This document shows, piece by piece, positions 12,681 to 26,927 of a stretch of 38,905 bases of DNA. Position 1 is the first letter of the stretch, and every line of letters starts with the position of its first letter. The notes under the pieces were generated by a model, which saw only the letters and a list, made by a program, of their open reading frames with translations, made no database searches and was not told where the DNA came from. Source of the stretch: a virus; the IMG/VR virus record IMGVR_UViG_3300025158_000681. One strand, written 5' to 3'. Both the position numbers and the translations under genes were made by a program.

Positions 12681-12757
12681 TGGTGCGACATGCTGGGTTC
12701 GAACCAGCGACCCAAGGATTATGAGTCCTTTGCTCTAACCAACTGAGCTAATGTCGC
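12681..12757 (-). tRNA. tRNA with CAT anticodon (Ile2-like; Met not excluded), copy A
   Basis: Cloverleaf, loop CTCATAA, T arm GTCGCTGGTTCGAA resembling enterobacterial tRNA-Ile2, CCA. Confidence 0.9.
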
Positions 12758-12823
12758 ATAAGATTTTACATTTCTGTAAGTGACCTAATTAAGATTATTA
12801 TAGCATATATTGTCTATGTTTTT

Positions 12824-13613: not shown

Positions 13614-13690
13614 TGGTGCGACGTGCTGGACTCGAACCAGCGACCCAAGGATTATGAGTCCTTTGCTCTAACCAACTGAGCTAACGTCGC
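13614..13690 (-). tRNA. tRNA(CAT), Ile2-like, copy B
   Basis: Near-identical to copy A. Confidence 0.9.
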
Positions 13691-13770
13691 ATAAGATTTT
13701 AAATTTCTGTAAGTGACCTAATTTAGATTAATTATACCTCAAAAATTACCCCTTTTTTATAATTTCATAT

Positions 13771-17284: not shown

Positions 17285-17401
17285 AACAGTTAGCAGGAAT
17301 CGAACCTACATTTCAGGTGTTTACTAAATTGATAGTCTCTGTGTACTTTAGAGTAGTTCCACTTGTTTCAACCCTGCGTCTTCCCATTGGACTATAACCA
17401 T
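17285..17401 (-). ncRNA. tRNA-like RNA (Phe GAA-like) with about 46 extra nt in the anticodon arm
   Basis: Acceptor atggtta/taactgt, D arm gtc/gac, T arm gtagg-ttcgatt-cctgc, anticodon stem cagg/cctg; no CCA. Confidence 0.6.
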
Positions 17402-22623: not shown

Positions 22624-22700
22624 TGGTGCGACCAGAGGGGTTCGAACCCTCGACCCAAGGATTATGAGTCCTTTGCTCTAACCAACTGAGCTACAGTCGC
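22624..22700 (-). tRNA. tRNA(CAT), Ile2-like, copy C (variant T and acceptor stems)
   Basis: Cloverleaf with compensatory changes, CCA. Confidence 0.9.
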
Positions 22701-22789
22701 ATAAGATTTTACCTTTCTGTAAGTGACCTAATTTACATTATTATACAACAAAATTAACCTTTTTTTAATAGTTTCACATTTAAATATAA

Positions 22790-23000
22790 TTGAAACAACC
22801 AGGATACTTCTCCTGAGTTTCTTACATAGAAAAAGTACCTTGAAAAATCAAGATGCTTTTGAATGATTACTTTTGGATGAAGCCTAGGAAAATGCCTGTG
22901 AGGCCATTTTGCCACTGTTCATAGTGATACTGGTGCAAGTTGAAACCACCCACGGTTTCTATCAACATTCTTCTACGTCAGGTAACATTATTTACCATGA
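22790..23000 (-). ncRNA. Candidate structured ncRNA
   Basis: ORF-free, GC above background, multiple hairpins, promoter and leader shared with tRNA-Leu at 24195. Confidence 0.4.
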
Positions 23001-23051
23001 CTCTATTATACATCAATTAATATTGAACTTTATTAATCTTTAAAAAAATTA

Positions 23052-23166
23052 TAACAAAGGTAGGATTCGAACCTACAATTACCAGCGGTTTACGGGGAAG
23101 ATTTTGGTGTCCTTCTCTAAGATAAATCCCCTAACCACATGTGTCTACCAGTTTTGTCACTATGAA
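23052..23166 (-). ncRNA. Degenerate tRNA-like RNA with elongated anticodon arm
   Basis: Leu-type D arm (aactggtagac), perfect T arm gtagg-ttcgaat-cctac, arm gtggtt/aaccgc enclosing a gggga/tcccc helix. Confidence 0.5.
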
Positions 23167-23183
23167 ATAATTTCTTTTAAATT

Positions 23184-23268
23184 TGGTGCCTAAGGACGGA
23201 ATCGAACCGTCACGGATTTCTCCGGGGGATTTTGAATCCCCTGCGTCTACCAATTTCACCACTCAGGC
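23184..23268 (-). tRNA. tRNA-Leu(CAA)
   Basis: Cloverleaf, loop TTCAAAA, CCA. Confidence 0.95.
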
Positions 23269-23290
23269 TTTCACATTAATACAAAAACTA

Positions 23291-23360
23291 AACTATCAGT
23301 GAGATTCGAACTCACGACATTTACCAACAAAAGTCTACCAACTAGCCCACGATGTTTAGT
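23291..23360 (-). pseudogene. tRNA remnant lacking an anticodon arm
   Basis: T arm gtgag-ttcgaat-ctcac and D-loop-like agttggtaga. Confidence 0.5.
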
Positions 23361-23448
23361 TAACTGTTTGGTGCAGTCTTTTTTATATTAAAGATATTAT
23401 AACACTAAAATAAATCAAAACTTTACAAATTTTTATTTATTTCTTATT

Positions 23449-23522
23449 TGGAGCGGAATATCAGAATCGAACTGATGACAACAGTTTGGAAAACTGTAGT
23501 TTTGCCATTAAACTAATCCCGC
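23449..23522 (-). tRNA. tRNA-Gly(TCC)
   Basis: Cloverleaf, loop TTTCCAA, U discriminator, CCA. Confidence 0.93.
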
Positions 23523-23624
23523 AAAAAATTTTACACATTGAAGAACTTCCATTCTTGCATTTAAACGGCGTGTCACCGTAACCATTTGTCTCGCCAGAGT
23601 TACTTTAAGATTATTGCCTTAAAG

Positions 23625-23705
23625 ACTTATCATTAGGAATCGAACCTAACTCCCTTCACAACAGCCCTCGGTTAACGAGATGGTTTTAATCCATCCTTTA
23701 GAAAA
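23625..23705 (-). pseudogene. tRNA remnant
   Basis: T arm ttagg-ttcgatt-cctaa; other arms degenerate. Confidence 0.4.
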
Positions 23706-23733
23706 ACTCTAGTCTTTCTAAAAGACAATTATT

Positions 23734-23806
23734 TGGAGCGGGGTAGAAAGAATCGAACTTCTATAAAAGCTTTGATGGCTACGTAATACCATTATACGAA
23801 CCCCGC
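23734..23806 (-). tRNA. Degenerate Gly-body tRNA with TCA at the anticodon position
   Basis: GCGGGGT/ACCCCGC-TCCA acceptor and Gly-type D arm; loop CATCAAA (A33); weak anticodon and T stems. Confidence 0.55.
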
Positions 23807-23812
23807 AAAAAA

Positions 23813-23928
23813 TTAATCCATAGAGTCATCAGGATTATCTCTGTCTCTTACTCAAGATTATCTGAGACAGTTTGATTGAATATCTAGTCAATCCTTCTAG
23901 TAATTCTGTTTTATCAGAATCTTATTTC
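23813..23928 (-). ncRNA. Four-hairpin spacer RNA, copy 1
   Basis: 8 differences to 24363-24479; stems conserved. Confidence 0.5.
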
Positions 23929-24003
23929 TGGTCCGGCATGGAGGAATCGAACCACCATATAGACTTTAGAAGAGTCTTGTCCTATCCGTTGAACGAATGC
24001 CGG
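23929..24003 (-). tRNA. tRNA-Arg(TCT)
   Basis: Cloverleaf, loop CTTCTAA, CCA. Confidence 0.93.
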
Positions 24004-24111
24004 AATATTTTTATCATATTTAAATACATTAAGTTTTTAATCTGAAACTCTGCAATCCTTGTTCAGCTTCAATTTAACTTTAACCTGGGGGCAAGCTAAT
24101 GTATTTAAATA

Positions 24112-24195
24112 TGGTGCGAGAGGCGGGATTCGAACCCGCAAGCCTTTCGGCGGGAGATTTTAAGTCTCCTGTGTATACCGTTCCACCACACTCGC
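24112..24195 (-). tRNA. tRNA-Leu(TAA)
   Basis: Cloverleaf, loop CTTAAAA, CCA. Confidence 0.95.
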
Positions 24196-24235
24196 TTTAT
24201 TTACCATAATACTATTATAACATTAATTTATCTCT

Positions 24236-24281
24236 AATTTATTTAGATTAACTTTATTTATTAAATTAATCTAAATAAATT
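24236..24281 (-). terminator. 16-bp hairpin closing the Ile2-Leu-Arg-Gly operon
   Basis: aatttatttagattaa / ttaatctaaataaatt directly after tRNA-Gly. Confidence 0.55.
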
Positions 24282-24355
24282 TGGAGCGGAATATCAGAAT
24301 CGAACTGATGACAACAGTTTGGAAAACTGTTGTTTTGCCATTAAACTAATCCCGC
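24282..24355 (-). tRNA. tRNA-Gly(TCC)
   Basis: Near-identical to 23449-23522. Confidence 0.93.
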
Positions 24356-24362
24356 AAATTTG

Positions 24363-24479
24363 TTAATCCATAGAGTTATCAGGATTATTTCTGTCTCTTA
24401 CTCAAGATTACCTAAGACAGTTTGATTGAATATCTAGTCAATCCACCTAGTAATTCTGTTTTCTCAGAATCTTCATTTC
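24363..24479 (-). ncRNA. Four-hairpin spacer RNA, copy 2
   Basis: See copy 1. Confidence 0.5.
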
Positions 24480-24554
24480 TGGTCGGTCTAGCAGGAATCG
24501 AACCCACATTCATTGCTTAGAAGGCAACTGCACTATCCGTTGTACTATAGACCG
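24480..24554 (-). tRNA. tRNA-Arg(TCT)
   Basis: Cloverleaf, loop CTTCTAA, CCA. Confidence 0.93.
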
Positions 24555-24602
24555 ATAATTTATCATATTTAATAACACTATTATTAGTAGTAGTATTAAA
24601 TA

Positions 24603-24689
24603 TGGTGCCTTGGGCCGGAATCGAACCGGCATGGAGTTTCCTCCGAGAGATTTTAAGTCTCTTGTGTCTACCTATTTCACCACCAAGGC
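24603..24689 (-). tRNA. tRNA-Leu(TAA)
   Basis: Cloverleaf, loop CTTAAAA, CCA. Confidence 0.95.
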
Positions 24690-24696
24690 TAATTGA

Positions 24697-24773
24697 TGGT
24701 GCGACGTGCTGGACTCGAACCAGCGACCCAAGGATTATGAGTCCTTTGCTCTAACCAACTGAGCTAACGTCGC
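24697..24773 (-). tRNA. tRNA(CAT), Ile2-like, copy D
   Basis: Same body as copy B. Confidence 0.9.
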
Positions 24774-24815
24774 ATTCATTTTTGTTAGGCTACTTTCGTT
24801 TCCTACCATGTCTGT

Positions 24816-24844
24816 ATTATATATCAATTTTTTGATTTTGTACA
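24816..24844 (-). promoter_or_regulatory. Possible internal sigma70 promoter just upstream of the tRNA operon
   Basis: TGTACA-N17-TATAAT on the minus strand. Confidence 0.45.
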
Positions 24845-24952
24845 GAATTTTTTAAAATCTTTTTGTATTTTTTGTTTTAATATCAATAACTTAATACGAT
24901 ATTTTAACCTAATACTTTAAGTTTATTTTTATATTCTAAATTTTAAAAGAGC

Positions 24953-24980
24953 AAAAAAAAGACAGCCTATTTAGACTGTC
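24953..24980 (-). terminator. Intrinsic terminator (attenuator helix 3:4)
   Basis: RNA GACAGUCU-AAAU-AGGCUGUC followed by U8. Confidence 0.85.
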
Positions 24981-25015
24981 TTTTGTTTATTCTTGGTTAC
25001 TTACTTATTTAACCC

Positions 25016-25102
25016 TTACGAAACACAAACAAAAGACTGTCCAGGAGATAATATTCTTATCCCTCTCAATCTTAAGCCTAATAATATAGTTGTGTGTTTC
25101 AT
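25016..25102 (-). CDS. Putative leader peptide MKHTTILLGLRLRGIRILSPGQSFVCVS
   Basis: Manual translation; ATA/TTA/TTG/AGA/GGG/GGA cluster; 3' part complementary to the terminator 5' arm. Confidence 0.7.
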   Translation of the reverse strand: MKHTTILLGLRLRGIRILSPGQSFVCVS

Positions 25103-25135
25103 TTAATTTCTTTTTACTTTTGTAACAATGAATGT

Positions 25136-25164
25136 ATCATATCTCATTTATATTTTTTTGTCAA
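25136..25164 (-). promoter_or_regulatory. Sigma70-type promoter of the leader peptide
   Basis: TTGACA-N17-TATGAT. Confidence 0.8.
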
Positions 25165-25327
25165 TATTTTTAAAAAAATATTTATAAAAATAAAAATTTG
25201 ACTTATTTCGATAATTATACAACAATTAATTTATGAATAAACATTAAAAAATTAATTTTCAAATAAGGCTTAAAAAATTTACGGGATTGGCTCGTCTATT
25301 GTTTTAAGTTTTTATAGGGAAATTAAA

Positions 25328-25636
25328 ATGTTAAAAAACTCTCTACAACAGTTCATTAAAGAACAATCACCATTTTGTGCTATTTATTTAATTGGTAATA
25401 ACTGACCAGTTAATTTAGAATTCAAAACATTAGACATTCACAATAATAGATTATTTTATACAAATAAAACAATTAATGATGATTACTTTTTTATAAACAA
25501 TATTAAATTATTAAACAAAGGTAAGAATGATTTCTTATTTTATATTCATAAAAATATTGCCCAAAAAGAAACATATAAAATTAATTCACAATTAAATCTT
25601 ATTGTAACAATACCTAGTCTCTATTGGTTTGAATAA
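25328..25636 (+). pseudogene. 102-codon ORF with one in-frame TGA (25403-25405)
   Basis: Manual translation MLKNSLQQF...GNN*PVNLEF...LYWFE. Confidence 0.45.
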
Positions 25637-25691
25637 CTAAAAAAGCAGCAATCGCCGCTTTTTCTTTAAACTAAATTAACCGTTAACCGTC

Positions 25692-26123
25692 TTAATTATT
25701 CAGGAAATATTCCAATATTTTAATATCTCCATATGAGATGCCACTTTCACTATCTATTAGTAGTAAATTTTTATAATTTTTACTAAAAAATCTTTCCATA
25801 TCATCTAATGCTATCCAAGATTTATTATCTATATTATTCTCTTTACAACACATTAAAATCTCTTCCTCTCTTCCTCCAATACCATATGTTTCTTTAATTA
25901 TTGGAGTCACTCCTACTATTCTCTTTTGAATGTCTTTTTCAAAAAAAACCTTTAATTTCTCAATCGAATGTTCTTCTCTCCAGGAACTAGAGATAACAAT
26001 ATTAACATTATCTAAAAATGGTCTAATGGCAGAACAAAATAATGGAACATGTTCGAAAAAACCTTTACCATTTATTCCCTCACCATGAAGAACACCATCA
26101 AAATCTAAAAATATTGTTTTCAT
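25692..26123 (-). CDS. HAD-superfamily phosphatase (HAD_SAK_2 / RNA-repair type)
   Basis: IFLDFDGVLH, VISSSWRE, GVTP, WIALDD motifs. Confidence 0.85.
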   Translation of the reverse strand: MKTIFLDFDGVLHGEGINGKGFFEHVPLFCSAIRPFLDNVNIVISSSWREEHSIEKLKVFFEKDIQKRIVGVTPIIKETYGIGGREEEILMCCKENNIDNKSWIALDDMERFFSKNYKNLLLIDSESGISYGDIKILEYFLNN

Positions 26124-26368
26124 TTAATTAATAGATTAAAACAATATACTAATTCAATAGAGTTGTTTTCTGTATATGGCAAATTAATGTTTCCCATATA
26201 CATTTCATGGCCAAAAATATTAGTAAATTCCCATAATGGCATTACCACTTCATCTAGAACTTCTGTTTCTTTAGTTTTACCAAATTGTTCTAAATATTTT
26301 TTATAAACATCTTTACCATTTTTTGTGAACTTACATTTTATTTGTTGATTTAGATTTACTGTTGTCAT
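26120..26368 (-). CDS. Hypothetical phage protein
   Basis: ORF track; PLWEFTNIFG motif. Confidence 0.65.
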   Translation of the reverse strand: MTTVNLNQQIKCKFTKNGKDVYKKYLEQFGKTKETEVLDEVVMPLWEFTNIFGHEMYMGNINLPYTENNSIELVYCFNLLIK

Positions 26369-26927
26369 ATTTCCCCTTTAGTTAATTTTAAGTTATATTG
26401 AAATAATTAGACTATTTTATATTCAAAAGCAATAATAGTCAAATTATGGGGTTTTCCATTTTTGCACAAATCTACAGGTCACTTATTGACATATATCAAT
26501 TATCACAAAATATTAACTGAAGTACAATTGATAATTCTCAACAACAATTCATTTTCATAATATTCCAGATGTTGACTCATATGATAAATAGCAAGATAAT
26601 AACACACCAAGCTAATGATTATGAATTAATGGTTACACTAAAGATTATTTTTAAATTAAAAAGTCTAATCATTTTATTATTTGAGTTTAAAAGGAATTTA
26701 TATGTTAATTTCTAAGGCAAAACTTCTATTTTTTTCATTTCAATGTGCAAAAACGAGTTATGAACTGAATAAACTAATGACTCGCAATACTTGTCGGCGT
26801 AAAAACCCAAGATTTAATTCTGGACGAAGAGAAATTAACTTGTTGGTTTATTTAAAAAAATTTACTTAGCTCTACCTCTAGTTTTTTATTTTTATTTTTA
26901 TATAATTAAAATACAAAAGAAATAAAA

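Follow-up and report, generated by a model that had tools for sequence, protein, structure and literature searches.

Leader and tRNA genes at the locus

The 38,905-nt viral DNA stretch IMGVR_UViG_3300025158_000681 from IMG/VR (the window, by which its full length is meant) carries on its minus strand a promoter (P1), a short open reading frame (ORF) and an intrinsic terminator, followed by a second promoter (P2) and a tRNA array that begins with four genes (Table 1). The present analysis concerns this leader and its relation to the array. With a G+C content of ~28%, the window is AT-rich; it contains 13 or 14 tRNA genes and encodes GrpE/DnaK/DnaJ-like and ParA/MinD-like proteins, an NAD kinase, an RNase H-like protein and a HAD domain of the RNA-repair type. 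The stretch appears to be a fragment of a giant phage genome. Metagenomic contigs of 100-220 kb carry the same DNA, and no close relative of the window was found among cultured phages, whose matches to it are tRNAs only.

Table 1 Positions of the leader elements and of the first four tRNA genes in the window
Feature	Position	Strand	Remarks
Promoter P1, sigma-70 type	25164-25136	minus	TTGACA-17-TATGAT; -35 at 25164-25159, -10 at 25141-25136
5' untranslated leader	25129-25103	minus	A-rich; weak Shine-Dalgarno sequence
Leader ORF	25102-25016	minus	28 codons and stop, between P1 and terminator
Putative stall zone, codons 6-18	25087-25049	minus	12 of 13 codons (ATA, TTA/TTG, AGA, GGG) served by the downstream tRNAs; the remaining one is GGC
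Segment 1	25073-25067	minus	Predicted partner of the 5' half of segment 2 in the untranslated leader (minimum free energy fold)
Inner hairpin in stall zone, then U-rich run	25063-25044	minus	Predicted by folding
Segment 2, putative antiterminator strand, codons 21-26	25042-25027	minus	15 of 16 pairs with segment 3
Segment 3, A tract and 5' arm of terminator	24988-24973	minus	
Segment 4, 3' arm of terminator and U run	24968-24953	minus	
Intrinsic terminator	24984-24957, then U run	minus	12 pairs, 4 of them G-C; loop of 4
Promoter P2	24844-24816	minus	TGTACA-17-TATAAT, 10/12; between terminator and first tRNA
tRNA, anticodon CAU, Ile2-like	24773-24697	minus	
tRNA-Leu (UAA)	24689-24603	minus	
tRNA-Arg (UCU)	24554-24480	minus	
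tRNA-Gly (UCC)	24355-24282	minus	

An earlier reading of the bare sequence (the original prediction) had proposed that this leader is an attenuator sensing the codons read by the downstream tRNAs. Its parts were located where it had placed them. P1 matches 11 of 12 consensus positions and is the best promoter match in the 3.5 kb scanned (23000-26500). The 28-codon ORF is present, and a recount of codons 6-21 gave the same 13 of 16 codons in the ATA, TTA/TTG, AGA and GGA/GGG sets. The 11-bp perfect complement between 25037-25027 and 24988-24978 was also recovered as an inverted repeat, and it overlaps the 5' arm of the terminator that, with its U run, follows the ORF. The four tRNAs with anticodons CAU, UAA, UCU and UCC were confirmed at 24773-24282. 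The hairpin said to close the array (24236-24281) stood in part: an inverted repeat lies there, but it is an AT-only palindrome and not a canonical G+C-rich terminator. The reservations of the prediction also hold, namely the weak Shine-Dalgarno sequence (SD) of the window, the presence of P2, which proved to be conserved, and the unproven identity of the CAU tRNA. The longest near-full-length Escherichia coli match of this tRNA (85.9% identity) bears the anticodon CAT and the annotation tRNA-Ile, and its T arm is almost the same; other tRNAs score only slightly below it. This match supports without proving the likely assignment of the CAU tRNA to Ile2, the lysidine-read species.

Codon content of the leader ORF

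Among ~78,000 stretches of 13 codons in the six frames of the window, codons 6-18 of the leader ORF, referred to here as the stall zone, form the single top, and the next best stretch elsewhere reaches 9 codons. The set ATA, TTA, TTG, AGA, GGA and GGG makes up 11.5% of the codons in the long ORFs of the window and 13 of the 28 codons of the leader ORF (P ~4e-6 for the whole ORF against the gene background). The genes of the window use ATT for 65% of Ile, GGT for 49% of Gly and CTT for 20% of Leu. AT richness does not account for the codon run.

Alternative RNA folds of the leader

The complementarity between the ORF and the terminator extends beyond the 11 bp to 15 of 16 pairs with one A-A mismatch and spans the whole 5' arm of the terminator. 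This duplex of segments 2 and 3 (2:3) beats 999 of 1000 dinucleotide shuffles in the window. The minimum free energy fold of the whole leader comprises a closed ORF domain and the terminator (-48.3 kcal/mol, z = -4.96). When calculated separately, the energies were -25.6 kcal/mol for the ORF domain, in which segment 1 pairs with segment 2 (1:2), -20.8 kcal/mol for the 2:3 hairpin (25042-24973), and -14.5 to -18.9 kcal/mol for the terminator (3:4). The inner hairpin within the stall zone is followed by a U-rich run and is a candidate pause hairpin for RNA polymerase.

The switch between these folds was modelled on a nascent transcript ending before segment 4, with the ribosome footprint masked. 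With the A site at codons 6-16, the predicted fold contained the 2:3 hairpin, which occupies the whole 5' arm of the terminator. This hairpin was partly lost with the footprint at codon 18 and was gone from codon 21 to the stop codon. In a constrained fold without a ribosome, segment 1 held segment 2 and the terminator formed. The zone in which a stalled ribosome would permit read-through therefore coincides with the zone that carries the codon run. The fold thus switched as the original prediction had anticipated, and it did so in five of the six lineages known to carry the leader (see below); the hairpins of the sixth, L090, were folded separately and stand outside this count. The leader shows the features by which ribosome-mediated attenuators are recognized: a short ORF, clustered regulatory codons, 1:2, 2:3 and 3:4 pairings that exclude one another and, in the modelled folds, the corresponding stall and stop geometry.

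Conservation of the leader in related loci

Scanning metagenomes for the invariant core of the CAU tRNA yielded 60 loci, in which the leader was sought by blastn and nhmmer. It was found in eight of them, representing five lineages besides the window: L116/L102/L095/L120, L123, L090, L124 and L093. These leaders are ~70-77% identical to that of the window. Each locus has one copy, always directly 5' of the tRNA array, and the flanking protein genes differ between the main lineages; nhmmer and a covariance model detected no further copies in the collected loci. The arrays of L090 and L124 end at contig ends. The conservation that the original prediction asked for, of upstream ORF, complementarity and terminator, was thus found in five diverged relatives, in each case before tRNA genes.

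The ORF has 26-28 codons in the six lineages, with its ATG, stop position and frame preserved. Indels within it are three bases long, and the leader of the window gains one base and loses another within ~10 bases, so that three codons of segment 2 are read in another frame and the stop codon is still in place. The +1 frame contains 5-7 stop codons in every lineage, and the +2 frame none in two lineages. At P1, the -35 hexamer is identical and the -10 hexamer is kept in all six lineages, and an AGGA-type SD lies 8-12 nt 5' of the ATG in four of the five relatives. The inner hairpin, segments 1-4 and the U run are kept throughout. Conservation is poor in the untranslated leader, in the loop from the stop codon to segment 3 and in the spacer that follows the terminator.

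Analysis with RNAalifold recovered the 1:2 helix, the inner hairpin and the terminator, with six pairs changed on both sides. In a model-fitted alignment of the six lineages, 96.6% of the cells in the terminated-state structure are paired, compared with 44-65% in slid controls; its six double changes were reached by 1 of 500 shuffles and its covariation score by none of 500. Helix 1 is 100% paired, and helices 2 (the inner hairpin) and 3 (the terminator) each have three pairs with both sides changed. Both MAFFT and the model-fitted alignment put segment 3 of L124 and L093 out of the 2:3 register, and an anchor-registered table was used for this helix. By this table, every lineage has 9-14 contiguous 2:3 pairs. 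When the upstream leader of each lineage was shuffled 1000 times, the real duplex scored better than at least 999 of the shuffles. Segment 3 of L093 differs at three neighbouring bases; its two partners, segments 2 and 4, have both changed so as to pair with them, and segment 1 is also changed.

One side observation concerns the mobility of the leader. The leader and first tRNA, spacers included (565 nt), are identical in three contigs (L116:2673-3237, L120:28-592 and L095:715-1279), and an adjacent protein of 232 residues is only 86% identical between the contigs that share this module. This suggests a recent exchange of the leader-tRNA module between related phages.

Leader codons and the tRNA content of the arrays

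In each of the five lineages that could be aligned codon by codon (the window and its relatives other than L093), 11-12 of the 13 codons of the stall zone belong to the set. The four relatives among them differ from the window at 20 codons of the zone, and 16 of these differences are non-synonymous, including changes from Arg to Gly, Arg to Ile, Ile to Gly and Arg to Leu. Seventeen of the 20 changed codons are still in the set read by the tRNAs, compared with ~38% expected from random single-base changes that create no stop codon (P ~2e-5, a value that is indicative only, since the lineages were treated as independent and the set was fixed after the arrays had been seen). Over codons 3-19 in all six lineages, Ile is encoded 12 times by ATA and never by ATT or ATC, Arg 15 times by AGA or AGG and never by CGN, and Leu 28 times by TTA or TTG, once by CTA and never by CTT; GGT does not occur. 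As judged from these alignments, it is membership of the codon set that is conserved in the stall zone, and not the amino acids.

The arrays themselves differ in content. The window array has CAU, Leu-UAA, Arg-UCU and Gly-UCC tRNAs and then a second set with Leu-CAA; the window lacks Val-UAC and Leu-UAG tRNAs, and its stall zone lacks Val codons and CTA. The L116 group adds Val-UAC and Leu-UAG, and its leader has GTA and CTA at positions where the window has TTA and TTA. The L123 array includes Val-UAC, together with Arg-UCU and Gly-UCC-like tRNAs that have insertions in the anticodon loop, and its leader contains GTA. The L093 array includes three Val-UAC tRNAs, Asn-GUU and Pro-UGG, and its leader contains two GTA codons, one GTG and one AAT. 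From these four informative lineages, the evidence that leader codons partly follow array content is suggestive. The covariation anticipated by the original prediction was therefore borne out for Val-UAC with GTA and for Leu-UAG with CTA, but not for the Asn codons of L123 and L090, which are considered below.

Proposed mechanism and alternative explanations

The leader is probably a ribosome-mediated leader-peptide attenuator that gates read-through from P1 into the phage tRNA array by codon sensing, a reading for which the masked folds, the five relatives and the conserved codon set provide computational support. In the proposed mechanism, RNA polymerase would start at P1, presumably an early host-type promoter, and transcribe the 28-codon ORF. 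Within the stall zone, ATA would be read by the Ile2-like tRNA, TTA and TTG by Leu-UAA, AGA by Arg-UCU and GGG by Gly-UCC. If the charged tRNAs were scarce, slow decoding would hold the ribosome on segment 1 and let segment 2 capture the 5' arm of the terminator; the terminator would then not form, and transcription would continue through P2 into the tRNA genes. Fast decoding would bring the ribosome to the stop codon, where it would mask segment 2 and allow the 3:4 terminator to form, and an untranslated leader would also be terminated by way of the 1:2 pairing. The tRNA products would in this way repress their own synthesis, with several tRNAs as inputs, any single one of which could trigger read-through. 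The attenuator would add a regulated share of tRNA transcription, perhaps early in infection from P1. We infer that the ORF is translated, that ribosomes stall in it and that read-through reaches the tRNAs. As a speculation, the device may detect the cleavage of tRNAs by anticodon nucleases. We lean, with less assurance, towards the wider view that phage tRNA arrays regulate themselves through translation speed at their own codons, the leader being a multi-input sensor of isoacceptor supply that could also respond to tRNA loss, for example to host anticodon nucleases; tRNA genes would then be a new class of attenuation target.

Several observations weigh against an attenuator of this kind. The GGC codon that is conserved in the stall zone is not read by a standard UCC anticodon; its bases pair in the 1:2 helix (alignment columns 28-29 with 75-76). 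L123 and L090 have early Asn codons and no known Asn tRNA in the sequenced part of their arrays. The SD of the window leader is merely an A-rich stretch, and SDs are equally weak before several real genes of the window. P2 is a good sigma-70-type promoter between the terminator and the first tRNA that is conserved in at least four lineages (its hexamers and spacing are the same in L116 by scan and in L123 and L124 by eye), and its position downstream of the terminator implies that read-through need not be the sole source of the tRNAs. Likewise, most of the remaining tRNAs in the window lack a leader and are preceded by a close promoter of their own. Favouring the attenuator, the ~60 nt from the terminator to the first tRNA of L093 contain no more than a weak promoter-like site (9/12), which fits P1 transcripts meant to reach the tRNAs.

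The switch itself is also open to objections. The full-length RNA at equilibrium prefers the terminator in the masked fold even with a stalled ribosome, which implies that the switch must be kinetic; classical attenuators are likewise kinetic, with the terminator favoured at equilibrium. In the model-fitted alignment, the 2:3 helix is 78.8% paired (39-55% in slid controls), with one double change and covariation not above that of shuffles, a count that understates the pairing because L124 and L093 are out of register in it. The support for this helix consists of conserved complementarity plus a compensated change in essentially one lineage. Segments 1 and 3 resemble each other, as do segments 2 and 4, so a hairpin duplication could be the source of some of the 2:3 complementarity. 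Finally, six is a small number of lineages, which are moreover not independent of each other, and the arrays were already known when part of the codon sets was defined.

The same observations bear on explanations other than an attenuator tied to the array. It is rather unlikely that the leader is an independent small unit, either a structured small RNA of ~175 nt or a 28-residue peptide, that is insulated by the terminator while the tRNAs are transcribed only from P2 and the other tRNA promoters. The strong structure of the terminated RNA (z = -4.96), its covarying helices, the conserved P2, the close promoters of most other window tRNAs, which lack a leader, and the fair similarity of the central part of the peptide across lineages would all suit such a unit. 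It leaves unexplained, however, that the ORF, its stop and its frame are kept despite radical R/G/I/L swaps within the codon set of the array, that synonymous choice is isoacceptor-specific, that segment 2 is complementary to the terminator arm in every lineage, and that the leader has a constant place before the tRNA array despite differing flanking genes; moreover, the C-terminal part of the peptide is frame-shifted over about three codons in the window. A reading as a small RNA only, which arose from the minimum free energy fold that closes the ORF on itself, was demoted on account of the frame and codon set conserved in the relatives. It is barely credible that the arrangement is due to chance, an AT-rich ORF that happens to lie beside a terminator: short ORFs are common in AT-rich DNA, where an estimated ~10% of ATGs precede 27 open codons, yet the codon run ranks first of ~78,000, the shuffle tests give at most 1 in 1000, and the arrangement recurs in six lineages.

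The evidence for the architecture would serve equally well for an attenuator that responds to translation capacity at large, or to a lack of Ile, Leu, Arg or Gly, and has a looser tie to the array. Stalling depends on charged tRNA, as in trp, his and ilv attenuation, and a shortage of amino acids would also trigger such a device. Its codons, however, single out isoacceptors rather than amino acids (for Ile only ATA, for Arg only AGR, with GGT and CTT absent), they track Val-UAC and Leu-UAG in the arrays, and the regulated genes are tRNAs, which cannot relieve amino-acid starvation; this explanation is accordingly quite unlikely. Very improbable, too, is a translation-independent switch in which the leader RNA binds a protein, a small ligand or a tRNA that decides between the 2:3 and 3:4 pairings, the ORF being incidental. 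Alternative helices and a conserved inner hairpin are present, and tRNA-sensing leaders (T-boxes) are an established class, but the leader matches neither an Rfam family at threshold nor a T-box, the ORF start, stop, frame and SD are conserved, and the loop of the inner hairpin varies freely and yet stays within the codon set.

Other features of the tRNA genes and the flanking region

The window contains four paralogous CAU tRNAs (12681-12757, 13614-13690, 22624-22700 and 24697-24773), an unusually high dose of one species, probably Ile2. Their D and anticodon arms are identical, and compensatory changes are found in the acceptor and T stems. Three of the four share a 30-nt 5' leader (12760-12800, 13695-13735 and 22705-22745). 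Most tRNA genes of the window are single units, each with its own promoter of the extended -10 type, and the -10 box and start region found at P2 (conserved CATGGTA-type start) occur three times 5' of tRNAs, at 24799-24821, 24197-24219 and 22988-23010. A spacer of ~120 nt between tRNA-Arg and tRNA-Gly occurs twice (24356-24479 and 23813-23928, 93% identity) and is partly kept at the same place in L090 (9823-9905, 80% over 84 nt); tRNA processing may free it as a structured RNA. Tracts with acceptor and T-arm motifs at 23735-23810, 23290-23350, 23060-23170 and 23560-23700 score below the ARAGORN and Rfam thresholds and may be decayed copies or unusual tRNAs. In L123, the Arg-UCU tRNA (102 nt, detected by Rfam and missed by ARAGORN) and the Gly-UCC-like tRNA (both within L123:7570-7853, minus strand) each have an insertion of ~25-30 nt directly 3' of the anticodon, and a Phe-like tRNA of the window (17285-17401) also has an insertion after the anticodon. 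These insertions are too short for group I introns.

The neighbour just 5' of the leader, a minus-strand gene (25692-26123), codes for a HAD domain of the RNA-repair type known as 'Swiss Army Knife'. Its homologue in two relatives (L003 and L005) adjoins a gene for an RNA 2'-phosphotransferase-like or CCA-adding enzyme-like protein, and this neighbourhood, as read from its genes, is a setting of RNA repair or tRNA maturation. The 530-nt gap 5' of P1 contains a plus-strand ORF of <50 codons that starts near 25328 (within 25281-25340), a terminator-like hairpin on the plus strand (25281-25295) and a promoter-like site of the extended -10 type on the minus strand (25225-25210). A search of IMG/VR through the HAD-domain protein alone yielded no relative, its alignment returning only distant proteins (at most 42% identity), and exact or degenerate leader and tRNA patterns gave zero matches in IMG/VR. 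Relatives of the HAD protein at 50-63% identity have no tRNAs nearby, and synteny was of no use. A degenerate leader pattern matched once in species genomes, on a contig labelled Patescibacteria; this match lies inside an unrelated coding sequence and was rejected as chance.

Comparison with known attenuators

All Rfam families compared with the leader scored below threshold, the best being Phe_leader (24.1 bits against 55) and L20_leader (22 against 59). Phe_leader was the only amino-acid leader family among the matches up to E = 10, and the T-box motif was found neither at the gathering score nor among those matches. A full-text literature search, with most subscription papers outside its scope, found no leader-peptide attenuator before tRNA genes of phages or bacteria, and nothing relevant was found on pheU and pheV. 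Old reports are said to describe attenuator-like features close to the tRNA-Phe genes of E. coli.

For amino-acid and synthetase genes, attenuation mediated by the ribosome is textbook knowledge. The leaders of ilvGMEDA (Ile/Leu/Val), thr (Thr/Ile), trpL, hisL, leuL and pheL, like that of the window, consist of a promoter and a short ORF with regulatory codons, and have four segments with exclusive 1:2, 2:3 and 3:4 pairings, a U-run terminator before the regulated genes and a stop codon placed so that a finished ribosome masks segment 2. The use of several codon families as inputs has its counterpart in ilv and thr. In contrast to the enterobacterial leaders, the window device would regulate tRNAs instead of biosynthetic enzymes, and its product would therefore feed back directly on decoding. 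Its codon choice is isoacceptor-specific (ATA and not ATT, AGA and not CGN, TTA and not CTT, no GGT), which implies that the leader would report tRNA species rather than amino acids. It also differs from them in its location in a phage, in the second promoter after the terminator, and in having no relation to them at the level of sequence or Rfam.

Attenuation that ties the supply of charged tRNA to translation genes is known from the pheST attenuator (pheM) and from T-boxes. However, pheM responds to a single amino acid and acts on a synthetase, T-boxes dispense with the ribosome by binding uncharged tRNA themselves, and neither is known to control tRNA genes. Attenuation logic apparently wired to tRNA genes, with a codon choice that singles out isoacceptors, would thus constitute a new target class. 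ATA, AGA and GGA are rare codons in E. coli, for which plasmids supplying the corresponding tRNAs exist, and the leader would act as a natural, direct gauge of how fast such codons are decoded. If correct, the attenuator would explain how AT-rich giant phages match their tRNA supply to the mismatch with the host pool, and it offers a rule by which phage genomes can be searched: a leader written in the codons of its array, followed by a switchable terminator.

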